Assembly: GCA_050012755.1 (NCBI GenBank)
Contig: JBEKGO010000005.1
Coordinates: 12,543-76,542 of the forward strand
Reading direction: 5' to 3'
DNA from: Candidatus Bathyarchaeia archaeon
GTDB lineage: Archaea; Thermoproteota; Bathyarchaeia; Bathyarchaeales; Bathycorpusculaceae
DNA: 64,000 bases
In this document: positions 4,170 to 57,895 of the stretch, piece after piece
How positions within the stretch are numbered: the stretch's first letter is position 1
How the letters are laid out: each line of letters opens with the position of its first letter
Translations under genes and position numbers: made by a program
Notes under the pieces: model-generated
Databases searched by the model: none
What the model was told of the DNA's origin: nothing
Seen by the model: the letters and a program-made list of their open reading frames with translations, nothing else

Positions 4170-4358
4170 TTAGACGCGTTTTTTCTTAATTACTATGTAA
4201 TCCTGATAATTGGGATCGAGTATCTGGAAGTATTCAATGTCTTGATTAACGCCTAATTCAAGGTGGTCCACCACACTTGCTGGAATGTAGAGCTTGTTAT
4301 TGCTGTATAACTTGCCTGTCCCAATAGACTTCAATTCGTTGGGTGCAATAGTTACCAT
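4170..4358 (-). CDS. AbrB/MazE/SpoVT-like DNA-binding protein
   Basis: 62 aa; KLYIPASVVDHLELGVNQDIEY matches the swapped-hairpin pattern. Confidence 0.65.
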   Translation of the reverse strand: MVTIAPNELKSIGTGKLYSNNKLYIPASVVDHLELGVNQDIEYFQILDPNYQDYIVIKKKRV

Positions 4359-4609
4359 AAGTCATCAGCTATCCAGTGGAGTGGTATTTTATTGTTGCCT
4401 AAAATATTTTTGGTCCAAAATTGGTCCAGTTTTAGTACATTAATTGGTCCAAAATTGGTCCACGATGACCAGTAAAGACCTTGGCCTGATTTTGGTCCAA
4501 TATTGGTCCATATTTGGTCCAGGATGAATAAAATCGATTCGTTGGTCTCAGAGGCGGTTTTACCTCGAATTATCTGTGAACTCCCTCCATTAGGATAAAA
4601 AGCTATCAT
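4352..4609 (-). CDS. Small ORF containing the 11-bp repeat cluster, coupled to both neighbours
   Basis: 85 aa; ATGA overlap with the upstream RHH stop and ATGGTAA overlap with the AbrB start; repeats translate as LDQIWTNIGP-like peptides. Confidence 0.45.
   Translation of the reverse strand: MIAFYPNGGSSQIIRGKTASETNESILFILDQIWTNIGPKSGQGLYWSSWTNFGPINVLKLDQFWTKNILGNNKIPLHWIADDLW
4410..4522. repeat. Cluster A of 11-bp-phased TTGGWCCAA palindromic repeats
   Basis: TTGGTCCA at 4410, 4421, 4444, 4455, 4492, 4503, 4514, with degenerate units between. Confidence 0.95.
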
Positions 4610-4788
4610 TTCTGTCTACTTCCTCTATCGAGCCATTTTGAAAAGTCAGCTTTGTTTTCGTAAGCAAATTCGAGGACTAGAGATATCGCAGTCTTAGTGC
4701 TTGGTACTTTTTTCATTATCAAAGTCATTTCGATTCGTAGCTCTTCAACTCGACGCCTATCTTCGTCGCTGATATTTACCGAGGGCAA
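4606..4788 (-). CDS. Ribbon-helix-helix (CopG-like) protein
   Basis: 60 aa; N-terminal strand MPSVNIS followed by two helices. Confidence 0.65.
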   Translation of the reverse strand: MPSVNISDEDRRRVEELRIEMTLIMKKVPSTKTAISLVLEFAYENKADFSKWLDRGSRQK

Positions 4789-5006
4789 AGCTGTTCACAT
4801 GATTTCTATATTTTATTACTATAATATAAGCTTTTATAGTTACTAAATAATATTATTATAAAAATACCTGAATTCCATTGTTTGATATTTATGTTTAGAA
4901 GAAAGTGAGATTACTGGGGGATGTATCTAACCACCTTCGCATAATGATTTATGAAAGTATTTGATGTTCTTTCCGGGATTTTCTTTCTTTTAGTTTTTTC
5001 CAGAGC

Positions 5007-5813
5007 TTGGTCCAATATCGGTCCATAGTGATCGTAATAGAGTTGGTCCAATTGTTGCCCATAAATGGTCCTTTTTTAGGGCAAGAATTGGTCCAATAAT
5101 GGTCCAGATTTGGTCCAAGGCAAGAAGTAATATCTCCTTGACGACGGCAGCTGTGGCAACTGCGCTAATGCCGGCGAAAACACCAGCTGTAGTTGATGCG
5201 GTGAATGCAGCGGAGTCGGAAGTTGTTAAAAGAACTGCTTTTCGCCGTTGAAATTTTGGTCCAATATTGGTCCAAATTTGGTCTAAGACGAAAAAAAGAA
5301 AATAGACAGGAGATGGCGACAGCAGCGGCAATTGAAGTAATTGCGGCGAAGGCAACAATCGCATAGATGGCGGAGGAGGCGGCGGCGGAACTGAACAAAA
5401 GAAATACAACTATGTCATCAAATTATTGGTCCAATTTGGAGCGTGGAAACTGTTGGACCAAAATTACCCCAAAGTTGGTCCACTATTGGTCCAAAAAAAG
5501 TCAAGGTTGCGATAACAGCGCTGATCGTGATGGTGGAAGCAACTATGCACAAGGCTAAGATGGACGCCACTAATTTCGCGATTAACTTCTTTGGTTCAAT
5601 ATTGGTCCAGATTTGGTCCAAGATAAAGAAGTTAATGCATTGACGACGTCGGCAGTGGTTGTAGCCTCAGTAATGGCGAATAGGCAACAATCAACGGGGG
5701 CAGCACCACGCAAAAATTACACTGCCACTGAATTTATTGATCCAATATTGGTCCAGAATAAGGTCATTTATTGGACCATTTTTAGTCCTAAAATTGGTCC
5801 ATTATTGGTCCAA
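5007..5813. repeat. Clusters B-F of 11-bp-phased TTGGWCCAA repeats separated by 96-139 bp spacers
   Basis: Clusters at 5007-5118, 5256-5286, 5426-5494, 5591-5621, 5737-5813; most steps within a cluster are exactly 11 bp; spacers are GC-rich and triplet-periodic. Confidence 0.95.
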
Positions 5814-5898
5814 AATCAAACTGTTAAACCTTAGTTGTTTGTCAAATTTTAAATAGCCATGAACATAGAGTTAGATTAACAGTCAAGAGTGATACCGT

Positions 5899-6930
5899 TT
5901 GAAATCTCCATTCGCACCATTCGACATCGAATCAACTAATTCAGAAGATTTCTTCCAAGCATTGTTGCCGTTAATCCCAAGGGCTATCGAGGTTGGACAT
6001 GCCTGCTATGAGCAAGTCCTAATAAAAGATGGCAGAATTGAGGAAGGAGAATACGATAAAGCCAAGGGGCTAGAAGGATTATACGTAAGTTCAATGGAAA
6101 TTTCAGATGATAGTGCTGGTTTCTCATTAAAAGGTCGTGCCTTTGCCAGCACTCCGATAGTAAAAGATCTGGAGAACACTTTGCTTAATTTGCGAGACTA
6201 TTTACTTACCTTAGGAGTCTACGACCCTAAGCCGTGTAAAGGACACCATGATCTTTTTTGTAGTCTGGTTATTGAAACCATGTTTTTCATGCCTGGCTCT
6301 TTTAGGATTAATTTAGTTGTTCGCAAATTACATGATGAAACCTATGAAGGAAGTGTCGGTGTCTCTTATGAAACTCTAGTCAATGACATAATCGAAGCAA
6401 AATCACATTTGACAGAATCAAAAAGAATCCGCGACCAGACATACGAGGAAATGCTGAAGAAGGTTAAGGATGCAGAAACTACCGATGAAAAAAAGAAAAC
6501 TCTAGAAAGCTTTGCCAATATTCTTTTTACTGACGCAGGATTTGAAGTAAAATACATAAGTAAAAGAGGAATTGATAGCGAGGTTGACCTATTTGTTATC
6601 AATGAATCTAAGGATAATTTTAAGATGCAACTGGGTAACCCGATTATAGTAGAATGTAAAAACATAAGTGAACCTGCAACTTCCAGCATCATTCGCAATT
6701 TTCAGACGAAGCTAATGGACAAAGCAGCATTTACAGGCGTATTATTTTCACTCAAAGGCATCACTGGTTCTAACGACGCCCAAAATGCAAAAGCTGCAAT
6801 TAGAACCTCTCTAATCGCACGCAACACGCGCATAATAGTAATTGACGGAAATGACCTCGAAAAAGTAGCGCAAGGGGAGTCATTCCTGTCTGTTCTCAGG
6901 GAAAAATTCTATGAGCTATCGACCATCTGA
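5899..6930 (+). CDS. Mrr-like (type IV) restriction endonuclease, PD-(D/E)xK C-terminal domain
   Basis: EVDLFV...IIVECKN motif and downstream Mrr_cat-like GVLFS...IIVIDGNDL; about 200 aa unassigned N-terminus. Confidence 0.75.
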   Translation: MKSPFAPFDIESTNSEDFFQALLPLIPRAIEVGHACYEQVLIKDGRIEEGEYDKAKGLEGLYVSSMEISDDSAGFSLKGRAFASTPIVKDLENTLLNLRDYLLTLGVYDPKPCKGHHDLFCSLVIETMFFMPGSFRINLVVRKLHDETYEGSVGVSYETLVNDIIEAKSHLTESKRIRDQTYEEMLKKVKDAETTDEKKKTLESFANILFTDAGFEVKYISKRGIDSEVDLFVINESKDNFKMQLGNPIIVECKNISEPATSSIIRNFQTKLMDKAAFTGVLFSLKGITGSNDAQNAKAAIRTSLIARNTRIIVIDGNDLEKVAQGESFLSVLREKFYELSTI

Positions 6931-7078: not shown

Positions 7079-7510
7079 TCACTTTGTTGATTGCATTCCG
7101 CTGCACTTTTTTGCAGCACTGACTGTTTCAGGTATGGACAATTTCTTTAGTTGCCTTATCCGATTTTTAAGAGTACTCATTAATTCTTGATTATTTCTAA
7201 GCCTTGACCTTATTATTTTGAACATGCTATTTCCTTCATCAGTTAATTTATAGTCATATCTTCGCTCGCCGTTAGGGAAACGAACTGTTCTCTGTTCTAA
7301 GATTCCTGATGTCACTAAAGTATCAATAGTATCTGCTAGCTCCTCAGAATAGGGACCGTAAAAATAGGATTCAAATTCAAAGTTAAATGGTAGCTGATCA
7401 CGGTATTTAAGAATGCAAATGTCTTTTTGTATCCGAGTCCTACCTTCAACAATGGAGTTATTGAAACCGAAAAAAGCAATTAGCAAAGATATGTCTTGCG
7501 TCTTAATCAA
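7079..7510 (-). CDS. YwgA/DUF4065 (SocA/Panacea-like) winged-helix protein
   Basis: GRTRIQK...FEFESYFYGPYSEEL...YKLTDEG family pattern; overlaps the HD gene by 8 bp. Confidence 0.7.
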   Translation of the reverse strand: MIKTQDISLLIAFFGFNNSIVEGRTRIQKDICILKYRDQLPFNFEFESYFYGPYSEELADTIDTLVTSGILEQRTVRFPNGERRYDYKLTDEGNSMFKIIRSRLRNNQELMSTLKNRIRQLKKLSIPETVSAAKKCSGMQSTK

Positions 7511-8801
7511 ATTCTGTCTCCTCTTTTACCAAGTTTTTTAATTTCTCTTTAATATTTCTATTTACAATATTTCTTTCAATTGTTGGAGAAATGTAAACTT
7601 TGATTACATTCTTCGCGGCAATTACATCTACTATATCTGATTCATTCCTTAATTCATATTCAGCCTTTGTCGGATGATCTAATAAAATACGCCTTGGAGT
7701 TCTTGACTTAATGATGTCACATATTATAGAATATTTCTCTTGCTGCAGTTCCTCTGCAAGTCTTAAAGACAAGTGTTCCGATAATTGATCTGGATCTTCT
7801 TCTAATTTTGCTAAAAACTCGGGTGACATTCTAAAATTTCGCTTCGTCAATTCGTTGTCAAGTTTTGACACATAAAGTAACCTTGGATTTTCAGCAGCTA
7901 TTAGCTTAACTATTTCTGCACCCTTTTTCTTTAGCTGCGATAACATGCTCTCATCATCGGCTTCAACATAGGCATCGAGTTGAAAAGTTTGTCTAATGTC
8001 AGTATCAGTAGCGCATAGCAAAAAAGCTTTTTCCAACATTTTCTCCGCAATTCTTGATTGTTCTATCAAATAAACCAAATCATACATGCTCTTCCAAATG
8101 ACAACAAATAACTCAGCAGTTACCACTGCTTGTTTAGTGAAATCCAGACCTAAGATGCAATTTGGCATGTCGTCTTCTGAGCCTATAATGGTGTAAGACC
8201 TCAAAAAATGGCTTAAATCAAAACTGTACCTTAGTCCCACATGATAAGCATCTCGAAGAAGATAATCTAGTTTATCACAATCTAAAGGTCCGTCTATTAT
8301 TTGATGCAGAAATGGATGAGAATGACTTTTCGGTCCAATTAATTGAATTACCGAACTTTTTGTTATGCCCCAATTTTCAATATCATTAGGTATTTTTTTT
8401 CTAATTATTTCTTCGGTCATTTCCTCATGAGTTTTTCCATTTATTAATTTTAGGACGAAATCGGCAGCATGAGAAAAGGGTGCGTGCCCTATGTCATGAA
8501 GAAAACCGGCAGCCATAACGTTATTTCTATTGTCGATTAAATTTTGCGATATGAACTGTTTTCCCTTATTTTTCATTTTTGTTGAAAGCATATCGACCAT
8601 GTTACCAGCAAGTTGCATTGTTCCTAACGCATGCGAATACCTTGTATGGATTGCGCCTGGAAAATTCATGTAAGCCTTTAAACCTAGTTGACGAATGAAC
8701 ATCATTCTCCTTACTGATGGATGATCATTTATGGCTATCAACCATGGAGGAAATAGAATAGTTCCTTGGATTGGGTCAGGCAGTTGATGACTTTGATTCA
8801 A
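7503..8801 (-). CDS. HD-domain phosphohydrolase, SAMHD1/YwfO-like dNTP triphosphohydrolase
   Basis: IRQLG, HTRYSHALG, LHDIGHAPFSH and LDCDKLDYLLRD motifs. Confidence 0.85.
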   Translation of the reverse strand: MNQSHQLPDPIQGTILFPPWLIAINDHPSVRRMMFIRQLGLKAYMNFPGAIHTRYSHALGTMQLAGNMVDMLSTKMKNKGKQFISQNLIDNRNNVMAAGFLHDIGHAPFSHAADFVLKLINGKTHEEMTEEIIRKKIPNDIENWGITKSSVIQLIGPKSHSHPFLHQIIDGPLDCDKLDYLLRDAYHVGLRYSFDLSHFLRSYTIIGSEDDMPNCILGLDFTKQAVVTAELFVVIWKSMYDLVYLIEQSRIAEKMLEKAFLLCATDTDIRQTFQLDAYVEADDESMLSQLKKKGAEIVKLIAAENPRLLYVSKLDNELTKRNFRMSPEFLAKLEEDPDQLSEHLSLRLAEELQQEKYSIICDIIKSRTPRRILLDHPTKAEYELRNESDIVDVIAAKNVIKVYISPTIERNIVNRNIKEKLKNLVKEETEFD

Positions 8802-11045: not shown

Positions 11046-11945
11046 TTGCCACTGTTTGAAACAAGAAAGAGCAATATACTTCAAGATGCTGTTGTCTTAG
11101 ATGCACAATCGGAGCCGCCGGGCGGAACACCTCTTTGCCGTGAAACGTATCTAGCTTCAATGGCTTCAAACATTTCCAGCATTTTCACTTCGGGCCGCGC
11201 CAGAAACCTCTTTGTTTGGGGACCCCCAGGGACAGGCAAAACAACAAGTATTCAATACTTACTGAAGGAAACGCAGCAGCACTCAAAAGATATTACTTGT
11301 CCAGTTGCCGCAGCCTATGTAAATGCGGGCAGAACCAGAAATCCATATTATACTTTACTTGAAATTCTTAAACAGCTTAATATTGAAGTACCAGAAATCG
11401 GATGGCAATTTTTTCGCCTTAAACAGGCTTTCGAGAGCACACTCAAAGAAAAACCCGTTTTAATAGCCATTGATGAAGTTGAAAGCATTCTCTTCAAAGA
11501 AAAAGAGCCTTTAATCTACTACTTGAATCGCCAGCCAAAAACAACACTAATTCTAATTAGCAACAAATTAAGTCAAGCGACTCAACTTCCGGAAAAATGC
11601 TTAAGCACATTACAACCGATGATGATCCTGTTTAATCCATACTCAGCATCAGAAGCATTCCAAATTCTGAAAGCTCGAGCTCAGCGGGCCTTTAAACCAA
11701 ACGTTATTTCGGATGAACTCCTATGCACTATTGCAAAAGCAACCGAGGACATGGCTGATATTCGGCTTGGCATGTCAATGTTACTCACAGCCGCCCAATC
11801 AGCCGAAACGAGCCAAAAAACCACAATCAATAATGAAGACGTTCAATTTGCCATAGAAAATGCGCAGAGAGTGAAAAGCCTCACAACAATTAATGATCTA
11901 AGCAAAAAAGTAAAGAAACATCTTGGCAAGACAATCGATTTCTGA
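11046..11945 (+). CDS. Orc1/Cdc6-like AAA+ ATPase lacking the C-terminal winged helix
   Basis: GPPGTGKT Walker A, LIAIDEVE Walker B, FNPYSASE...ILKAR, DIRLG sensor II; 299 aa. Confidence 0.85.
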   Translation: MPLFETRKSNILQDAVVLDAQSEPPGGTPLCRETYLASMASNISSIFTSGRARNLFVWGPPGTGKTTSIQYLLKETQQHSKDITCPVAAAYVNAGRTRNPYYTLLEILKQLNIEVPEIGWQFFRLKQAFESTLKEKPVLIAIDEVESILFKEKEPLIYYLNRQPKTTLILISNKLSQATQLPEKCLSTLQPMMILFNPYSASEAFQILKARAQRAFKPNVISDELLCTIAKATEDMADIRLGMSMLLTAAQSAETSQKTTINNEDVQFAIENAQRVKSLTTINDLSKKVKKHLGKTIDF

Positions 11946-31885: not shown

Positions 31886-33460
31886 ATGAGCGCGCAAGAA
31901 AAACTCCAACAAGCAATCGAGGCTACAATCGCAGCGGGATACCAATTAGACAGCGAAGCTTTCGAATTCCTAAGCCAAAACTTAGACATCAATGACCCAG
32001 TTGACATAATGAATTCAGCCCTTCAGAAGCTTCAGGACCTCGAAGAAAAGCCGTTCTTCATCGACAGAGTTTTCTTAGAAACATTAGCGCAGCAGCTAAC
32101 CGCGTCAGTTATCGAAACACAAAATCAACATCAAGAGCAAAAGGCTTTTGAGCCACCTATTCAGCAGCAGATAAGCCAAATCATTACGGATGAGAACACC
32201 GCTTTTTACCCCTACGCCAGAGACATAAAATCATGCCTAACTATTCTGGAAGATGCAACCGGCAAACTAAGTTCGAACGGAACATTAGAAGAATATGTAC
32301 AGTATTTCCAAGATAGGTTCAAACGTATCGAACATTTGCTGAGGCAAAGAATTGACGTGAGAGCCGCAACATCCATACTTGAAGCGCTCAAATCCCCTCC
32401 AAAAACAAAGCTCAAAATTATTTGTATGATAACGGAAAAAAGAGAATCAAAAAACCAAATGATATTGTCAGTTGAGGATTTGCAAGGCAGCGCAACTGTT
32501 TTGGTTCCTCAAAAAGCGCAGGAAGAAGTCAAAAAAAGAGCCCTCCTTCTTTTGCCAGATCAAGTGGTCTGTTTGGCAGTGATAAAAACACGAACCAACC
32601 TTTTCCTAGCTGAAGACATTATCTTTCCAGAAATAGGCAAAAAACCTCAGCAGAGAGCCCAAGAACAAGTTTATGCTGTCTTAACTTCGGACCTTCACAT
32701 TGGCAGCAATAAGTTTGAAAAAGAAGCATTCAAGCGGTTCATATCATGGCTAAGGGGCAAATATGGAAACGAGGAAATGAAGGAAATAGCAGGAAGAGTA
32801 AAGTACGTTTTGATCGCCGGCGACATAGTTGATGGGGTTGGAATTTACCCTAACCAAGCAAAGGAATTATCTATTCGGGATGTTCATAAACAATATAATT
32901 TTGCAGCTAAATATCTGGAAAAAATTCCTGAGTACATAGAAATAGTGATTTCACCCGGGAATCATGATGCTTCACGTAAGGCTTTACCGCAGCCTGCAAT
33001 CCCAGAAGGCTATTTGACCGGAATTCAAGGGAAAAAAAATATTCATTCTGTTGGAAGCCCCTGCCTGTTGAGCCTGCATGGCGTGGAAGTTTTAATGTAT
33101 CATGGCCGAAGCTTGGATGACATAGTCGCGGTAATACCTGGAATGGATCAGGCTCACCCAGAAAAATCAATGAAACTGTTAATGCAAAGTCGGCATTTAG
33201 CGCCAGTTTACGGTGGAAAAACCATGTTATCGCCAGAGAACCGCGATTACTTAGTTATTGATAGAGTACCAGATATTTTTCACGCGGGCCATATCCACGT
33301 TTTGGGATACCTCAATTATCGTGGAGTGCTTGTTGTGAATTCAGGTGGCTGGCAAGCGCAGACTGATTACATGGAAAGATTAGGGTTGGTTCCTACCCCC
33401 GGAAAAGTGCCAGTAGTAAACCTGCAAACACTAGAAATAACTGTTCTTTCATTCATCTAA
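31886..33460 (+). CDS. polB: DNA polymerase D small subunit (DP1)
   Basis: YFQDRF, OB domain, SDLHIGS, AGDIVDGVGIYP, PGNHDA, HAGHIH, VNSGGWQAQT. Confidence 0.97.
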   Translation: MSAQEKLQQAIEATIAAGYQLDSEAFEFLSQNLDINDPVDIMNSALQKLQDLEEKPFFIDRVFLETLAQQLTASVIETQNQHQEQKAFEPPIQQQISQIITDENTAFYPYARDIKSCLTILEDATGKLSSNGTLEEYVQYFQDRFKRIEHLLRQRIDVRAATSILEALKSPPKTKLKIICMITEKRESKNQMILSVEDLQGSATVLVPQKAQEEVKKRALLLLPDQVVCLAVIKTRTNLFLAEDIIFPEIGKKPQQRAQEQVYAVLTSDLHIGSNKFEKEAFKRFISWLRGKYGNEEMKEIAGRVKYVLIAGDIVDGVGIYPNQAKELSIRDVHKQYNFAAKYLEKIPEYIEIVISPGNHDASRKALPQPAIPEGYLTGIQGKKNIHSVGSPCLLSLHGVEVLMYHGRSLDDIVAVIPGMDQAHPEKSMKLLMQSRHLAPVYGGKTMLSPENRDYLVIDRVPDIFHAGHIHVLGYLNYRGVLVVNSGGWQAQTDYMERLGLVPTPGKVPVVNLQTLEITVLSFI

Positions 33461-33490: not shown

Positions 33491-34717
33491 CTAGGTTTTT
33501 GTGTGAGTCTGTGGCGAATAGCAGATTAAACGGCTAAAGCGAGTATCGTCATTAAATACATCTCGGATCAAGCTTCTTGAGATTTCAAGTCTTATTTTTT
33601 TGGTTCTGCCGTATCTCCCCATGCTCACAACTTTGGCGTTAGCAAGTCCCATAGAATCCAACTCATTAATTAGAGTGCCCAATCGCCGTTGTGTCAGCAA
33701 CCCAGAACCCATCTCGCCGCATAATTCATTGTAAACATCGTATATTTCACCCGTTGTCGCGCTTGGTTTATTCAAGTGATAAACGCTGAGTAGAACCAAC
33801 TTAGAATGCAACGTTAAATTCTTTAGAGATTCCACTACACGATTATGTTCAATGTGTTTTTCTGCTTGACGCACATGCTCTTCCGTGACAACTTTGGCGC
33901 CTTGTCGTTCAGCCACTTCTCCAGCGACACGCAGCAAATCCAGAGCGCGCCTCGCATCACCATGCTCTGCAGCAGCCAAAGCCGAGCAAATGCTAAGTGC
34001 TGAATCAGACAAAACACCTTCTTGGAACGATAGTTTTGAGCGTTCAAGAAGAATATTTCGAAGTTCACCTGCATCATATGGCCTAAAAACCAATTCTTCC
34101 TCACTAAGAGAACTAAAAACTCTTGGATCCAAAAATTCCTTCAAACGTAGATCGTTTGATATCCCGATGATCGCGACTTTGCTTTTTGTTAAAGTTTCGT
34201 TTATCCTTGTTAATTCATACATGAAGGCATCGCCTTTATCTTTGATCAACGCATCAATTTCATCAAGAATTATGATGAAAATTATTCTGGTTGAATCTAG
34301 AGCAGTTCTAAACCTGTCGAAAACTTCACCAACTGATAATCCTGTAAAAGGTATTGGCATACCGATGTTTTGGCTTAGAGCTGCGAAAACCCGGTATTCT
34401 GAACCTGTCATTCGACAATTAATATAACAAAATTTTACTTGTGAACCGTACTCTTTTGCCTTTGATTCTAAATGACTTAAGACGTATTTTGTTACTGCTG
34501 TTTTCCCAGTACCGGTTTTTCCATAAATAAAAATGTTAGAGCATCGTGAATCTCTTAGGACTGGTGCCACAGTTTGTCCCAACAATTTTATTTGTTCTTC
34601 TCTGTGGGGTAGTTTCTCTGGAAGATAGTCGTGCCTTAGTACTTCTCTGTCTTTAAACAGCCGAACGCCATTTACGAAATTCTCAAAGACATCTTCTAAT
34701 ATGTTTTGATCCCCCAT
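33491..34717 (-). CDS. cdc6: Orc1/Cdc6 replication initiator
   Basis: YGKTGTGKT, LDEIDAL, LDPRVFSSL, HGDARRALDLLR, C-terminal wH with SMGRYGRTK. Confidence 0.97.
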   Translation of the reverse strand: MGDQNILEDVFENFVNGVRLFKDREVLRHDYLPEKLPHREEQIKLLGQTVAPVLRDSRCSNIFIYGKTGTGKTAVTKYVLSHLESKAKEYGSQVKFCYINCRMTGSEYRVFAALSQNIGMPIPFTGLSVGEVFDRFRTALDSTRIIFIIILDEIDALIKDKGDAFMYELTRINETLTKSKVAIIGISNDLRLKEFLDPRVFSSLSEEELVFRPYDAGELRNILLERSKLSFQEGVLSDSALSICSALAAAEHGDARRALDLLRVAGEVAERQGAKVVTEEHVRQAEKHIEHNRVVESLKNLTLHSKLVLLSVYHLNKPSATTGEIYDVYNELCGEMGSGLLTQRRLGTLINELDSMGLANAKVVSMGRYGRTKKIRLEISRSLIRDVFNDDTRFSRLICYSPQTHTKT

Positions 34718-34865
34718 GTGCTCATTCCATCCTTTTCAGAGGTAGAACCGTTATTTCGAGTGGAGAAGATAAAGGATGCAGTACAAAAAACTGGTTCTAT
34801 AGCACAATATTCTTTAAAAAACATGGAAAAATCAGATTACAACCAACTAAACAGAGAGCAAGCCA

Positions 34866-34887
34866 CACCCCAAAGCTTCTACTGGAA
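34866..34887 (-). promoter_or_regulatory. ORB element 1
   Basis: Minus strand TTCCAGTAGAAGCTTTGGGGTG resembles the TCCAGTGGAAAC + G-string consensus. Confidence 0.75.
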
Positions 34888-35052
34888 AAAAATAGCCAAC
34901 ATGAGAAAAGGCATTATATATTATTATTTAGTAACTATACTCTGAGTGTTAAGTGCATATATCATATATTAATAATTGCCATCCAAATTTTTAGATAAAA
35001 ATTCTGCAAATCTTTTTTTAAAGATTCCCCGACTTCTTTTTGCTCTTCAAAA

Positions 35053-35074
35053 CTCGAGAGGAAACATAGGGGTG
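35053..35074 (+). promoter_or_regulatory. ORB element 2
   Basis: CTCGAGAGGAAACATAGGGGTG. Confidence 0.7.
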
Positions 35075-35302
35075 CCTCTGCAGACATCAACGCCATGGTA
35101 AATAAGTGATAACTTAACCTTTTCTTTATCATGAGTGTTGACTTTTTTCGGGATCTGTTATCTTCAGAATTTTACAAGAGATTCTTTCTGATTTTCCATT
35201 CACAAAATTGTGAATACATGTGAAATAGCGTTAATTTTGCTGCTTAGTCACCTTCCTTTACTTCAGAATTACCTATTTCTTGTCAGTTTACTGTGAACAG
35301 CA

Positions 35303-35324
35303 CACCCCTCCGCTTCTACTGGAG
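35303..35324 (-). promoter_or_regulatory. ORB element 3
   Basis: Minus strand CTCCAGTAGAAGCGGAGGGGTG. Confidence 0.75.
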
Positions 35325-35516
35325 ATCTAGAACCAAACAAGAACTTTTGTTCTTTAGACAATCTGATTAAGTGTGAAGCTGGTAATGCCCAATAAAATGC
35401 AATACTCCCTCATTTTACCGAAACAAGCATTATGTTCATTTTTTAAGTTGTGCTGTTTCACCATAACAGCTATAAGTTGTGAAGTATAAAGCTGTGAACC
35501 CTAAGGTGCGCATCTA

Positions 35517-51997: not shown

Positions 51998-53470
51998 CTA
52001 ATGCGTATACATAAAGGCGGCTCTCCCTGGTGGCGCCGCATGGGAAGCTGCTCGGCAGGCTAATGCTAGAGCCATCAGTTGATCATCATGTTTTCCTTGC
52101 GGATGCCAGAACTTTAAGTGGATCCGTTCTTGCGCAGTTTTCGGCTGCAAATATTCATATTGCTGCTCATTCATCTGCGCAATCAACGCCTTGTCATCTC
52201 CAATTATCTTAAGCAATTTCTTTTCCATTAGGAGTTTAAGATTGTTTAACATGTTTTCTTTTTCTATATCAGTAAAGAATACCCCTTCAACGCCAAACAT
52301 ATCAATTCTGTAAAGTTCATCAACTATTGCATCGCCGATTCCACCCTTGTCCACGCCTAATCTTTCGAATTTGAAGACTTGGTTAGCTCTAGCTACATAT
52401 CCGATTACTTCTGGATAACTGGTGCCTAGTGGAAGCTGCCGTTTATGCACCACCCGCATCTCCCCCGAATCAAATCTTTTCACAACAACTAGCACGCTAT
52501 AATCAACTTGTTTGCCTAAATCTAACCCCGCATAATAAGGTCCCTCAAGCTGTCCCGGTTTTGTTTTTTCAATGTCTTCGATGTAGGCGTTAGGCGAGTC
52601 AGGGTTCCCCAAATCTGCATCTACGCAAGTGACAATCAAGTTAATTGGGAAGAAAGTGTGTGTAGCTTCTACCCATAAGCCTTCAACTTCTCTTTGCCAC
52701 TCTTCCTGCGTCATAACCTCCTTCCATTCATCAAGTTCTTTCTGGCTAACAAGAGGACTTTGATAACTTGCGTAATGATGCACGCTGTAACGATTTGTAT
52801 CCAAAAAAGCTTTGCGAAAAACATGATCAGAGCTCATCGGTGTACCACTCATTACAAGGCAAGAATTAGGTTTTGTTAACATCATCATTATTTCACTTGT
52901 TATCATTTCGCTTGGAACAATCGATGCCTCATCAATGAAAATGAAGTTTGGATGATATCCTCTGAGTCTGTCTTTTGAGCATGGTAAGGCGATGAGTCTT
53001 CCGCCTAGAGGCGGTTTTACTGTTATTATTGTTCTCGAAGTTCCATGTTTTTGAATCAACTCTTTCAATAGTGGGTTAGCCATAGTGGTTGAGAAACAGT
53101 AATCAAACATAATCATCGATTGACGTTGAGTGCTACTTATGATTAAACTCTCAATCTTGGGTTTTGTGAATAACAACCAGAGATTCTTTCTACTAAATAC
53201 CAAACTCTTGCCCCATCCTCGCCCACAAACCGCCACCTGCTTAGAATTAGTGTCTCTGAGAAGCTTCTGATGTTCCGGTGCATGAACAAGCCATTTATCG
53301 CCGCACATTAACACCGCGAAAAATACAGGATCCTGAACAAGTTTGTCAATTACTTCTTTGTGAGATACCAATTGTCTTAGCGCTTTAGGCTTCTGCAACA
53401 AACCCTCGCAAACCGAACCAGCAAATTCCAAGTCATTTGTTACCTTCTCGATGAAAGTCTTCTCGTCCAA
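51998..53470 (-). CDS. terL: Terminase large subunit
   Basis: GRGWGKS Walker A, LRGYHPNFIFIDEA Walker B, SGTP motif III, nuclease GLDLGKQVDYS, VDKGGIGD, HDDQLMALALA. Confidence 0.9.
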   Translation of the reverse strand: MDEKTFIEKVTNDLEFAGSVCEGLLQKPKALRQLVSHKEVIDKLVQDPVFFAVLMCGDKWLVHAPEHQKLLRDTNSKQVAVCGRGWGKSLVFSRKNLWLLFTKPKIESLIISSTQRQSMIMFDYCFSTTMANPLLKELIQKHGTSRTIITVKPPLGGRLIALPCSKDRLRGYHPNFIFIDEASIVPSEMITSEIMMMLTKPNSCLVMSGTPMSSDHVFRKAFLDTNRYSVHHYASYQSPLVSQKELDEWKEVMTQEEWQREVEGLWVEATHTFFPINLIVTCVDADLGNPDSPNAYIEDIEKTKPGQLEGPYYAGLDLGKQVDYSVLVVVKRFDSGEMRVVHKRQLPLGTSYPEVIGYVARANQVFKFERLGVDKGGIGDAIVDELYRIDMFGVEGVFFTDIEKENMLNNLKLLMEKKLLKIIGDDKALIAQMNEQQYEYLQPKTAQERIHLKFWHPQGKHDDQLMALALACRAASHAAPPGRAAFMYTH

Positions 53471-54394: not shown

Positions 54395-57300
54395 TCATAC
54401 TTCATCATTCTTATTACGGGCTTGTGGTTCAGACTCAATAAACTCTTGTTCAATTTCGTTTATCTGGTACAGATCATAAATTTTCTTGTCTAATCTCCTA
54501 TCCAGAACGACCATTTGGTGATGTAATTCGTGGGCTGATTCAAGTAATTTGCAATAGTGTTCTGTTATTCTATTAATGGCTGTCAGGTTTTCATTCTTAA
54601 TCTTATTGAAGATGGGAATCTTTGCAGATAACAGCTTTTGGAACAAATTGCCTGTTCCCATAGATTTCCAGTTCCTATTAGCATACAGCATAACAAATCT
54701 TCTGAGAGAATCATTTATTATTCTGCATTTGAGAACAAGGTAACCACTTTCTACTTTATCACTACCGATTGGTAAAAAGTCAACTCTGAACTCCAGAGAA
54801 TTCTCTTCTTCTGCTACCTCTATTTTCTTAATTGCTCCTTTCCTGATTCTGTCTGCATATTGGCAATCAATCGAGTCTAAGCCGTGATAAATAGTTGAGA
54901 ACTTGGTGTAAGCAATTATCGGAGAATCAACGCATTGGTTAAAATCCAAGTTTATTGCTGCTCTCTTGTTTGACAAGGACATTAGCTCCTCAACGTTACT
55001 GACTATTGACAGGTGAAGCGCTTTTTCAGACTCGTCGGTTAGGTTTATTTTTTTAATTGGGATTTCGGCTAAGGGACCGCTAAAGTACTCCATATATCCG
55101 TCTCTTTTGAGTTTTGTAGCAGATCGGTAATAGAAGTTCATTAAACGAGAATTCAAAATACCCAAAACATACTTTATGCTAACAAGCTCTGTTCTTGATA
55201 CAAGTACATAGGTATCGGTGAGCGTGTAGAACGACTCATTATCAAAAGCGAACTTGTTAGATGTGGCATAATTGGGAACAAGAAGTTTTTCCTTCACACA
55301 ATCAAATAGTTCCCTGTTGCGAGGAACACTGAGTTCATACCATTTACGCGTCCCATGCCTCACTTGAAAGCGCGCTTCAAGTTCAATTCTAAATTGTTTT
55401 AGATAGTTTATTGTGTTAGGGATGGTTTCCGGATTAATTTCAGGAACCGTGTAAATTAGTGATAGGTTTCGATAACCGATATGATACCGCTTAACATCTC
55501 GAGTCTTAACGTATTTCTTTAGTACTTCAGTCTCTAACTGATATTTCTCGATTATTTCAGGAGTTACTATGAATGCTTTGTTTAGACCTGTTGTCATTCC
55601 CTGCCCTATATTACAAATGTCATTATCACCAAGCTTCCACGAATTTCTGCGGATTTTTTCTTTTAGCATTTCTATTTTTGAGGACGAAAAAATCCATGGT
55701 TCAGCGGTCAACTCTCCTTGGAGCCAGCTAAATACACTGATATGCTCATCCTCAAATGAATCTTTGTTTTGATTAGCTTCAATATGTTTGAAAAGATCAC
55801 TGTAACTCTCGGACCAATTTTTAACCTTAACCAATTTTATTCGATTATTTGCACGAGCTTCTGAATCAGAATTGCGCTCAAAAATGATTATGGACGTGAG
55901 AACATTTGCACCTTTGAAAAATTGAACATTCCCTGAATCCAAAATAAGCTTAATCCTTGCATTTTTTAGAATCCAATCCCTTAGTTTATCAGCCCAACGT
56001 GACTCGAGCCAATACCGAGCAACGATGAAGCCTAACACCCCCTTTTCCTTTAGTAGACTCAAACCGCGCATTATGAAATAGAAGAGGATATCGTTCTGAC
56101 CTCTATAAACTTCAGACCATTCAGTGCTTTCCCTGAGGTATTTTTTTAGCTCATCCGATTGCGTTGATATTGTAAAATATGGGGGATTACCTATAATAAC
56201 ATCAAACTTCCCTCCCTCAACGGCTCTAAAACCCTTTTCCCAGCGAAATGGTTGAACGCTAGAAAATCCCTCTCCAAAAAACTTTTTAAGTTCTTCATCT
56301 TCCAATCCAATTATCGAGTTGCCAACCTTGATATTTTCTTGAAGAATTAGCGGTAGCTTTTCACCTCTCTTCAATGCTTGGAGCATGAGGTTTACAGATG
56401 CTATTTCAGTAGCAGAAGAATCAATATCTACCCCGAAAATGTTTTCCATGAGTATCTTCTTTTCAAAGTTCTCAAAAGGTTGATGCCGTCTCGATTCAAG
56501 TTCCCAAGCTTCTTTGTTCTTTCCTTCAGCTCTAAGTCTAAATATTTTGTTCGTTATCTTCTGATTTTCTTCACTGATTTTTTCGTTATATGCCCTATAC
56601 TTTTTTTCAAGCCTTTCAAAAGCCTTGATTAGAAAAGACCCAGAGCCGCACGCAGGATCAAGAATACGGACTTTGGCCACTTGAGAAAATTTTTCAATTG
56701 ATTCCGAAATTCTCTCGTCTTCGTAATACTTAACAGCCTCGTCGAATGCCTCTGCAACTTTCTCAAGTGCGTTGGATGCAATATAATTTACAACGGGAGG
56801 CTCAGTGTAGTATACACCGCTTGATTTCTTCAATATAGGGGTTGGTTTGAGTTCAACATCATTGTTTATGAATAATTTGCTTCCAAGGTAGCTTTCGTAA
56901 GTATTTCCGAGAATGTCGGAAGTGAACTTTCTAAAGTTTTGGCCATAGAGCGCTTTAATGATGTCAGCCAACGTATCACTACTTATCCTCGAAAGCACTT
57001 TATCGAGCTCTAGGTCTTCTTCGAAGATTTTGCTGTCATGAATTTGGTTAAAACCAACGAAGAGTTGTTTGATGATTTCAGTAAGAGAAGTGTAAGTCCG
57101 TGTTTTGGACCAATACTCAAATGCGGCATGGAGCTGGTCAGGATCCGAAAGAACCCACTTGTCTTCTGCATAGCGAATGATAACAAATCGGTCAATTATT
57201 CTTTGGGTGTATTTTTGGAGCTCCTCAGCTTTCAATTCAGGGCAGTTTCTATGCATATTCCGAGCGAGTTTGAGACGCCAATCATTTAGAGCATTTAGGA

Positions 57301-57895
57301 AATTTAGATCGACATCAGGCCTTTCAATTCTTCCTTCCAGTTTGTTAATATTTCCATCCGATACTTGTTCATTTGTTAAAAGCATTAGATCATCTATTCG
57401 CTCCAAATACTGCGTAGGCGACTCGATGTCGAGAACTACTTCACCAGTTTTAGAGTTAAAAAGCCTAAATTTCTCGAAATTTGTTAATATTGCCCATTTA
57501 GCATCAATACTCATTCCTGCGTAATTAAGCACTTGGCGTTCCTCTGACGTCCAGTCTGCATAAATTTTTTGGCCAGAGAGAGTTAATTGGACCCCTCGCT
57601 CCAAACGGGATGGCACACCGCCAAATCGTTTTGCTTCAACAAAAATAATAGGTTTGCCGCTAACTTTTAGAGCTACATCTGCGTGACCAATCCCTCGCAC
57701 ATAATTCTCTGAATCGTATTCTTTTGAATCGTCAGTTTTCCAGCCTAATATACTAAACAATGGATCTACGTAGTCCTTTCTAACATTTGCTTCACCAATT
57801 TCCTTGAGCCCTTTGTCGCCGAGCTCAAATTTGCGAACGGTATATTTTTGAATAAGCTGCTTTACACCATGCACAACATTGTCATATTCGGCCAT
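54395..57895 (-). CDS. Type IIG restriction-modification enzyme (REase + N6-adenine MTase + TRD)
   Basis: N-terminal HADVAL...FVEAKR, GVYYT, ILDPACGSGSF motif I, IIGNPPY motif IV, TaqI_C-like TRD. Confidence 0.92.
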   Translation of the reverse strand: MAEYDNVVHGVKQLIQKYTVRKFELGDKGLKEIGEANVRKDYVDPLFSILGWKTDDSKEYDSENYVRGIGHADVALKVSGKPIIFVEAKRFGGVPSRLERGVQLTLSGQKIYADWTSEERQVLNYAGMSIDAKWAILTNFEKFRLFNSKTGEVVLDIESPTQYLERIDDLMLLTNEQVSDGNINKLEGRIERPDVDLNFLNALNDWRLKLARNMHRNCPELKAEELQKYTQRIIDRFVIIRYAEDKWVLSDPDQLHAAFEYWSKTRTYTSLTEIIKQLFVGFNQIHDSKIFEEDLELDKVLSRISSDTLADIIKALYGQNFRKFTSDILGNTYESYLGSKLFINNDVELKPTPILKKSSGVYYTEPPVVNYIASNALEKVAEAFDEAVKYYEDERISESIEKFSQVAKVRILDPACGSGSFLIKAFERLEKKYRAYNEKISEENQKITNKIFRLRAEGKNKEAWELESRRHQPFENFEKKILMENIFGVDIDSSATEIASVNLMLQALKRGEKLPLILQENIKVGNSIIGLEDEELKKFFGEGFSSVQPFRWEKGFRAVEGGKFDVIIGNPPYFTISTQSDELKKYLRESTEWSEVYRGQNDILFYFIMRGLSLLKEKGVLGFIVARYWLESRWADKLRDWILKNARIKLILDSGNVQFFKGANVLTSIIIFERNSDSEARANNRIKLVKVKNWSESYSDLFKHIEANQNKDSFEDEHISVFSWLQGELTAEPWIFSSSKIEMLKEKIRRNSWKLGDNDICNIGQGMTTGLNKAFIVTPEIIEKYQLETEVLKKYVKTRDVKRYHIGYRNLSLIYTVPEINPETIPNTINYLKQFRIELEARFQVRHGTRKWYELSVPRNRELFDCVKEKLLVPNYATSNKFAFDNESFYTLTDTYVLVSRTELVSIKYVLGILNSRLMNFYYRSATKLKRDGYMEYFSGPLAEIPIKKINLTDESEKALHLSIVSNVEELMSLSNKRAAINLDFNQCVDSPIIAYTKFSTIYHGLDSIDCQYADRIRKGAIKKIEVAEEENSLEFRVDFLPIGSDKVESGYLVLKCRIINDSLRRFVMLYANRNWKSMGTGNLFQKLLSAKIPIFNKIKNENLTAINRITEHYCKLLESAHELHHQMVVLDRRLDKKIYDLYQINEIEQEFIESEPQARNKNDEV

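Follow-up and report, generated by a model that had tools for sequence, protein, structure and literature searches.

A kilobase array of phased TTGGWCCAA palindromes beside an AbrB-like gene in a bathyarchaeal genome

The DNA examined here (the window) is a stretch of 64,000 nucleotides from contig JBEKGO010000005.1 (positions 12,543 to 76,542 of the forward strand) of Candidatus Bathyarchaeia archaeon, an uncultured organism whose DNA was found in peat and wetland metagenomes. In this window we identified a module of three parts: TTGGWCCAA palindromes in a non-coding array that extends over more than a kilobase, a downstream gene for a 62-residue AbrB-like protein, and a convergent gene for a 165-residue membrane protein (p165). 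The same three elements recur together in two diverged relatives. We favor the reading that the array is a multi-operator regulatory region for the AbrB-like protein in a defence island, and we assign it a probability of about one in two.

With up to two mismatches allowed, the array contains 30 TTGGWCCAA sites, 14 of them perfect, which form ten clusters over approximately 1.4 kb (4410–5813). Clusters comprise two to six sites at a spacing of exactly 11 bp, and 15 of all 29 successive spacings have this value. At the same threshold the site density is 20.7 per kb between 4380 and 5830 and 3.3 per kb elsewhere; with no more than one mismatch, the whole window holds 102 matches, compared to 50.8 ± 7.6 in shuffled sequences. 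Successive units meet at CCA-ATAT-TGG and CCA-AAAT-TGG junctions, and the predicted RNA fold of the inter-gene segment (z = −2.7) is what palindromes are expected to produce. A first-pass annotation of this DNA had reported the repeats as part of a small operon of three minus-strand open reading frames (ORFs) that code for a ribbon-helix-helix (RHH) protein, an 85-residue protein filled with repeats, and an AbrB protein. All three ORFs (60, 85 and 62 codons) are present, and the middle one does contain seven exact TTGGTCCA units and about three degenerate ones in 11-bp phase that are read as LDQIWTNIGP. However, the array is not confined to this interval (4170–4788). Seven further clusters extend over 0.8 kb (5007–5813) upstream of the RHH-like gene, in a region that contains no credible gene. 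Public annotations call ORFs on conflicting strands there, and these ORFs score as non-coding in a 3-periodic Markov model that we trained on 32 long ORFs of the window. The score is expressed in bits per codon; for 60-codon pieces of real genes the median is 0.143 and the 5th percentile 0.017.

Over the locus, nine contigs with the same AbrB-like protein match the window at 100% identity. The array is also unchanged in at least seven independent assemblies from different samples, and Logan contigs from other runs hold no variants. Since all these copies are clonal, they establish that the array is stable, yet they are uninformative on constraint, dN/dS or copy number.

Table 1. Coordinates of the array, its neighboring genes and the replication locus in the window
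Feature	Position	Strand	Remark
p165, 165-aa protein with N-terminal hydrophobic helix	3669–4166	+	convergent with the AbrB-like gene, 3-nt gap
62-aa AbrB-like (putative swapped-hairpin) DNA-binding protein	4170–4358	−	conserved partner of the array
85-aa ORF	4352–4609	−	open frame through stop-free repeats, most likely no gene
Candidate TATA box of the AbrB-like gene (AAATATTTTA)	4400–4409	−	AT-rich; read from sequence; abuts proximal site 4410–4418
Proximal site clusters	4410–4463 and 4492–4522		7 TTGGWCCAA sites, 11/23-bp spacing, between the RHH-like and AbrB-like genes
T5 tract	4597–4601	−	immediately behind the stop codon of the RHH-like gene; possible archaeal terminator; codons 3–5 of the 85-aa ORF
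60-aa RHH-like protein	4606–4788	−	TTG start; real gene; lineage-specific cargo inside the array
Distal site clusters, first set	5007–5051, 5088–5118, 5256–5286, 5426–5434		
Distal site clusters, second set	5453–5494, 5591–5621, 5737–5813		
Higher-order repeat of ~170 bp (site triplet and GC-rich spacer)	5060–5860		at least 3 paralogous copies; 1 homologous copy in L158
Candidate TATA box of the divergent Mrr-type gene (TTTTAAATA)	5847–5855	+	read from sequence; 34 bp past the last site
343-aa Mrr_cat restriction-endonuclease-like protein	5899–6930	+	Pfam PF04471, E 1.4e-6; adjoins the array
PolD small subunit (PolD-DP1)	31886–33460		same locus as cdc6 and the ORB-like boxes
Full-length orc1/cdc6	33491–34717		adjoins the ORB-like boxes
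ORB-like boxes (CACACCCC...CTTCTACTGGA)	34864–34899 and 35301–35336		intergenic, beside full-length cdc6

Two diverged relatives of the locus were found, and further ones probably exist. The first, L158, is an 11-kb contig whose AbrB-like protein and p165 are 89% and 78% identical to those of the window. The second, L245, derives from peat and soil, and its AbrB-like protein and p165 share only 43% and 35% identity with the window proteins. This locus was recovered by scanning metagenomes for three TGGWCCA motifs, a pattern that gave at least 120 matches (the window's own locus is not among the matches listed). In all three loci the AbrB-like gene is immediately preceded by phased sites and faces p165 in convergent orientation; in L158 and L245 the two genes end within a few nucleotides of each other. 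Apart from the array, the AbrB-like gene and p165, everything else differs between the three loci. L158 carries two blocks of sites (4750–4949 and 5981–6134), and the homology to the window ends at these blocks and at the far end of p165. Between the blocks, where the window has the RHH-like gene, L158 encodes a 100-residue protein and a different Mrr_cat protein. The L245 array spans about 900 bp and comprises 18 sites in six clusters, again spaced by exactly 11 bp; its last site triplet is located 15 nt upstream of the AbrB-like ATG. Neither relative encodes a homologue of the RHH-like protein. A search of 72,556 plasmids and of viral contigs returned no homologue of the AbrB-like protein or p165.

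These relatives provide a measure of the constraint on the array. Between the window and L158, the AbrB-like gene shows a synonymous divergence (dS) of 1.19 with an omega of 0.047, and p165 a dS of 1.62 with an omega of 0.069. The cluster beside the AbrB-like gene can be aligned across this distance, and both its sites and its 11-bp spacing are intact; substitutions and frame-breaking indels have accumulated between the sites and in the putative 5′ leader. L245 also keeps the sites and the 11-bp phase, with spacers unrelated to those of the window. Since the synonymous sites are essentially saturated yet the array sites are intact, selection acts on the DNA sites and not on the 85-residue frame. 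On this point the first-pass annotation was right, as it had placed the constraint on the DNA rather than on a protein repeat.

The 62-codon gene itself scores as a typical gene of the window (0.165 bits per codon). The assignment of its product to the AbrB/MazE/SpoVT fold is plausible but weak. An alignment by hhalign against AbrB, Abh, SpoVT and MazE, together with a PF04014 domain encoded in the window itself, gave a probability of 33% (E 4.6e-4) over 30 columns, which overlap at the "IP" hairpin-helix in the motif GK..nnKLYIPasVvdhLeL..nqdiEYfqi. The L158 orthologue (P0004) matches the Pfam family MazE_antitoxin (PF04014) below threshold (E 0.099), and the window protein does not match it. 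An AlphaFold2 (AF2) model from the single sequence is of low confidence (predicted local distance difference test, pLDDT, 62). The order of its strands (residues 10–13, 16–19, 22–26 and 54–58) and helix (27–30) is compatible with a beta-beta-alpha-beta-beta topology, and a Foldseek search with this model returned no meaningful match.

We propose that the AbrB-like protein binds as dimers to consecutive sites along one side of the helix, where it would read either the CCA-W4-TGG junctions or the TTGG-W-CCAA dyads, and that each cluster could nucleate a cooperative filament. At both ends of the array the clusters border directly on candidate TATA boxes, which would belong to the AbrB-like gene and to flanking or embedded genes, namely those for Mrr-type nucleases and, in the window, the RHH-like gene. 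Occupancy of these clusters would lead to autoregulation of the AbrB-like gene and to repression of potentially toxic genes in the defence island, and the internal clusters may add cooperativity, looping or titration. The box assigned to the AbrB-like gene lies about 45 nt upstream of the ATG (40–50 nt in the window and L158); in L158 the equivalent position behind the last site is taken by AAAAATTTATTG, and a conserved GGATAGCTGAT comes next, immediately ahead of the ATG. The candidate box of the Mrr-type gene, TTTTAAATA, also occurs in L158, after the site triplet upstream of the operon for the 100-residue and Mrr_cat proteins, and a third element (ATATTTTAAAG) follows the first L158 site and faces a divergent gene for a 288-residue protein. 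We infer the promoters of the AbrB-like and Mrr-type genes from these motifs, and the Mrr_cat gene is a putative regulated cargo of the array. The first-pass annotation had expected a small DNA-binding protein encoded beside the array to be its reader. This idea likely holds, with the difference that the RHH-like protein is not the candidate, since the AbrB-like gene is the conserved partner of the sites.

Several points weigh against this reading. The linkage between array and AbrB-like gene is based on three loci, and the site consensus is unchanged between AbrB-like proteins that are only 43% identical, so that no co-variation names the reader. Profile searches of Pfam, NCBIfam and the Protein Data Bank (PDB) found no significant match for the AbrB-like protein, and the weakness of the fold assignment described above counts here as well. 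Thirty sites over 1.4 kb far exceed what autoregulation needs, and most internal clusters are not beside any credible gene. The candidate promoters were read by eye, and none of the RNA runs that we searched contains the locus. Finally, p165 or a factor encoded elsewhere could bind the sites instead.

Known regulators provide partial precedents. In vivo, AbrB of Bacillus subtilis recognizes pairs of TGG motifs with the consensus CCA-WWWW-TGG (TNCCA-WWWW-TGGNA), and its footprints exceed 40 bp and involve several tetramers (PMC3025583). The resemblance lies in a small regulator of the swapped-hairpin type with repressor logic, and in the CCA-WWWW-TGG element, which in the array forms the junction of successive 11-bp units. 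In contrast to the 62-residue single-domain protein with one array of 18–30 near-perfect sites, AbrB has a C-terminal tetramerisation domain, relaxed specificity and sites across hundreds of promoters; with an hhalign probability of 33%, the 62-residue protein is a putative member of this fold family. Closer in organism is C68, a factor of AbrB type from the Sulfolobus plasmid-virus pSSVx, which binds between its own and a divergent promoter (PMC5569661). C68 is an archaeal precedent for a single-domain AbrB-like factor in such a position, but its motif is TATG(C/GG)TTTTC, it has few sites and it belongs to a mobile element, and no kilobase phased array has been described for it. Tandem 11-bp operator units are known from the small RHH repressor F55 of the virus SSV1, which binds units of the consensus ATAGATAGAGT that overlap the B recognition element (BRE) or transcription start site (TSS) of several promoters including its own, and whose graded occupancy acts as a switch (PMC5569661). 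F55 differs by its protein family and motif, by having two tandem repeats per site at a handful of sites, and by its viral origin; unlike F55, the RHH-like protein of the window is not linked to the repeats. Tandem short units that are read by successive dimers on one helical face are also found in the MetJ metbox, the Omega heptad and the StbA stbDR arrays, where two to ten units at single promoters tune affinity by copy number. The array described here has 18–30 units in spaced clusters over at least 1 kb.

A bolder and rather unlikely possibility is that the module represents an undescribed archaeal system in which a minimal DNA-binding protein polymerises on a scaffold of at least 1 kb. 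Such a system could tether or organise a defence island at the membrane or provide switchable silencing of toxic defence genes, and would be centromere-like without a motor, or heterochromatin-like.

Among the rival explanations, a centromere-like segregation site deserves attention first, even though we consider it quite improbable. According to this idea the AbrB-like protein is an adaptor whose filament on the array is captured by a motor or by membrane-anchored p165. The many clustered sites in 11-bp phase do resemble parC of plasmid R1 and similar centromeres, the array is far larger than a normal operator, and a conserved membrane protein is encoded beside the adaptor gene. R1 parC is about 160 bp long, contains ten iterons that flank one promoter, resides on a plasmid and always occurs together with the ParM motor. 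ParR binds parC in a cooperative, filament-like and autoregulating manner, and both systems place clustered sites of 11-bp phase beside a gene for a small dimeric DNA-binding protein. By comparison, the archaeal array is roughly ten times longer, consists of palindromic sites, is chromosomal and has no motor, and the RHH gene is dispensable in the relatives. Among the ORFs of at least 120 codons that we scanned in the window, we found no domain of ParA, ParM, Rep or integrase and no NTPase of the ParA, ParM, TubZ or SegA type, in agreement with the first-pass annotation, which had noted that a ParA or ParM motor was missing. The called genes of L158 and of L120, a contig that extends the locus to the left, encode no such NTPase either. 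The surroundings are those of a chromosome, without Rep or a plasmid or virus backbone, and the module has no homologue in the plasmid and viral collections mentioned above. No RHH adaptor gene is consistently linked to the arrays, which occur without it in L158 and L245. With neither an NTPase nor Rep present, and a canonical origin 30 kb away (see below), the earlier proposal of a partition or copy-control module finds no support in this locus.

An architectural or chromatin element appears similarly improbable, although an architectural or silencing role of the whole array would be the most interesting reading that the evidence allows. The alternation of GGWCC and AT-rich segments every 11 bp might position or exclude chromatin proteins, or the AbrB-like protein might be a local nucleoid protein, and the array would then insulate or silence the island. 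AbrB-like proteins of the Sso7c4 type provide a precedent for nucleoid proteins. Such a role would fit sites that keep strictly in phase with the helix over a kilobase or more and clusters far from any gene, as well as the fact that variable defence islands host the array in both the window and L158. On the other hand, what is kept at 43% protein identity is an exact 9-mer and not just a dinucleotide periodicity, which points to sequence-specific reading, and the terminal clusters adjoin TATA-like boxes.

We regard it as very unlikely that the sites are recombination sites or cassette boundaries, similar to those of integrons or to the arm-type sites of integrases. The cargo between the blocks does vary, from the RHH-like gene in the window to the genes for the 100-residue and Mrr_cat proteins in L158, and the homology between the two stops at the blocks. 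Moreover, seven unrelated viral or metagenomic contigs (e.g., L130 and L149, ~4512–4693) carry TTGGTCCA-type repeats beside a 395-codon ORF that looks by eye like a tyrosine integrase, an arrangement that fits arm-type sites. However, no recombinase, integrase or transposase is encoded within 10 kb of the array in the window or on the 11-kb L158 contig, and at least seven assemblies show no polymorphism in copy number or arrangement.

The motif was also encountered in other DNA. Scanning viral contigs for doublets gave 29 loci, as compared with 21 and at least 111 loci for control 8-mers at the same spacing. A scan of genome contigs for TTGGTCCAWWWTTGGTCCA gave single chance matches in bacteria among the matches listed, and a literature search for the motif returned primer matches only. 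None of the scanned motif loci except L245 encodes a homologue of the AbrB-like protein, p165 or the RHH-like protein. Since control 8-mers are as frequent or more so and no proteins are shared, we rejected the TGGWCCA arrays of phages and metagenomes as relatives of the module. In one phage family (L131 at 680–910, L141, L146, L157, L248) intergenic tandem units of about 95–106 bp each contain a triplet of TTGGTCCAA in 11-bp phase. These phages encode a family-B DNA polymerase and a lysozyme, have a GC content near 40% and have no proteins in common with the archaeal module, so that the coincidence of motifs is probably convergent. Among other mobile elements, contig L140 (3722–4100) carries TTGGTCCA-type clusters of mixed orientation between genes for a primase-helicase and a terminase, in an origin-like arrangement. 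Twelve metagenome contigs with a GC content of 0.54–0.58 (L164, L183, L186, L190, L206, L216, L234, L237, L250, L265, L273 and L277) have conserved sequence around a single TGGWCCA triplet, perhaps a non-coding element that is conserved within some lineage of bacteria.

The distal part of the array has a higher-order structure, with a unit of about 170 bp that includes both a site triplet and its spacer; one such segment of L158 (4749–4949) is 70% identical to the window (5803–5591) by blastn. The spacers have a GC content of 46–51% and an open, hydrophobic, RNY-periodic frame on the strand that is sense for the AbrB-like gene. One stop-free frame runs through each of the window spacers at 5120–5250, 5288–5420, 5497–5588 and 5624–5734 and through L158 4815–4918, where it has no start codon. 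These frames encode an Ala/Ile/Val/Thr-rich, transmembrane-like peptide (G at codon position 1, 0.30–0.44; pyrimidine at position 3, 0.57–0.84), and they could be the relic of a captured membrane-protein segment or specify small hydrophobic peptides. The array as a whole might accordingly be a satellite or relic under no selection, in which a 170-bp unit, perhaps once part of a gene for a membrane protein, was amplified in tandem and persisted. The inclusion of the spacers in the unit and their apparent coding past would speak for this view. We consider this highly improbable, given that the sites are kept where synonymous sites are saturated and that L245 retains sites and phase with unrelated spacers.

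The window is part of an archaeal chromosome. Pfam scans of the large ORFs identified both PolD subunits, full-length Orc1/Cdc6, GGGP synthase, ATP-citrate lyase, aconitase, isocitrate dehydrogenase, NAD synthase and Lrp/AsnC regulators. The array locus has core metabolic genes and a defence island as its context. The island takes up the initial 11 kb of the window and another 6 kb beyond its left end, which are visible in L120. The island encodes a type I restriction-modification (R-M) system, DarT/Macro proteins, the Mrr-like nuclease, a dGTPase-like HD protein (7503–8801) and a PIN protein. Its extension to the left of the window start (L120 14921–20189) holds the DarTG-like DarT/Macro pair and the type I system (HsdR, HsdS), and the window itself has weak DarG-like and specificity-subunit-like matches at 7079–7510. 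A terminase-large-subunit-like ORF (51998–53470, weak Terminase_6N match) and the neighboring 1166-residue fusion resembling type IIG/Eco57I R-M enzymes (54395–57895) may represent a second island or a virus remnant. We found no tRNA genes in the window, and an Rfam search of it gave no family at gathering score and noise alone at E ≤ 1.

Clustered direct repeats in a long intergenic region could also be the iterons of a secondary replication origin from an integrated element, and a truncated Cdc6-like gene lies 5 kb away. This gene (11046–11945) is located at the island edge next to ATP-citrate lyase and encodes a second Cdc6-like AAA+ protein of 299 residues, with a lid domain and without the C-terminal winged-helix domain. 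That the array serves as such an origin is nevertheless extremely improbable. TTGGWCCAA is unlike the boxes of archaeal origins (origin recognition boxes, ORB), of which a pair (34864–35336) beside full-length cdc6 and PolD-DP1 is likely the canonical oriC, 30 kb from the array. The Cdc6-like gene is absent from the 11-kb L158 contig, no Rep is encoded, and no AT-rich unwinding element with inverted sites on either side is evident.

The RHH-like gene is most likely cargo that was inserted into a larger operator region and not the reader of the array. Its coding score is 0.048 bits per codon. In a word-indexed search of 5.8 billion proteins the product matches only itself; an exhaustive HMMER search recovered eight remote RHH-like homologues with the common N-terminus MPS(I/V)xVSDED, which validates the TTG start. 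An AF2 model based on this alignment of eight sequences (pLDDT 81) shows an extended N-terminus followed by helices at residues 8–25, 31–44 and 46–58. The best Foldseek matches are complexes of small transcription factors with DNA, at values that are not significant (E ~4, TM 0.53). Pfam, NCBIfam and the PDB offer no significant match to this protein, so the first-pass labels RHH and AbrB stand on weak profile matches and secondary-structure patterns rather than on a database family. The proposed linkage of RHH proteins to the repeats did not survive comparison. Arrays occur without an RHH gene in L158 and L245, and not one TGGWCCA site is present in the ten loci at which four remote homologues of the RHH family are encoded; the genes of these four have an ordinary setting upstream of genes for AIRS-domain or radical-SAM proteins. 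In addition, a protein of 1345 residues (P0005) contains six tandem units of about 150 residues with a start like that of the RHH-like family (..EDKKQIEELRVDVTEKD..), an uncommon case of this small domain in repeated form.

The overlaps that had suggested a translationally coupled operon are real (ATGA at 4606–4609 and ATGGTAA at 4352–4358). Archaeal RNA polymerase terminates at oligo-T tracts. It is plausible from the sequence that the T5 tract behind the RHH-like stop codon is a terminator, in which case the RHH-like gene would be monocistronic and the 85-codon ORF would start inside its terminator. This ORF is most likely an artefact of stop-free repeats. Its score of −0.082 bits per codon is below the 5th percentile of real genes and similar to those of spurious repeat ORFs in the distal array (−0.100 for 4990–5409 and −0.076 for 5418–5621), and among 5.8 billion proteins the same word-indexed search found only the ORF itself. 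Its tblastn matches are spread over several frames and both strands, a pattern typical of DNA repeats. In L158 the frame has only 49 codons, ends 29 nt before the AbrB-like ATG and is disrupted by indels that are not multiples of three; L245 has no equivalent. The open frame is also not very striking. The repeat blocks contain no stop in the frame of this ORF, and when we held these blocks fixed and shuffled the 146 non-repeat bases of the 247-bp gap, one minus-strand frame remained fully open in 4.7% of the trials. A chance of about 0.05 makes the open frame only a mild coincidence. Genuine dual coding, in which the ORF is translated and coupled to the RHH-like and AbrB-like genes, would account for the overlaps, the open frame and the calls by public gene callers, but with no homologues, a non-coding score, a frame that is broken or absent in both relatives, an openness expected in about 5% of trials and a T5 tract in codons 3–5, we find it barely credible.

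The locus therefore carries a caution for annotation: stop-free DNA repeats can give rise to publicly annotated ORFs (85, 124 and 66 codons) that appear to be translationally coupled to their neighbors. None of the three proteins is a member of a described family; searches of PADLOC, NCBIfam and Pfam returned nothing for any of these core proteins, including p165. If the AbrB-like protein does read the array, few known operator arrays that serve a single minimal transcription factor would be as large as this one, with 18–30 phased sites that selection has maintained over deep divergence. The array would also provide a handle on how archaea control defence islands that are rich in nucleases.

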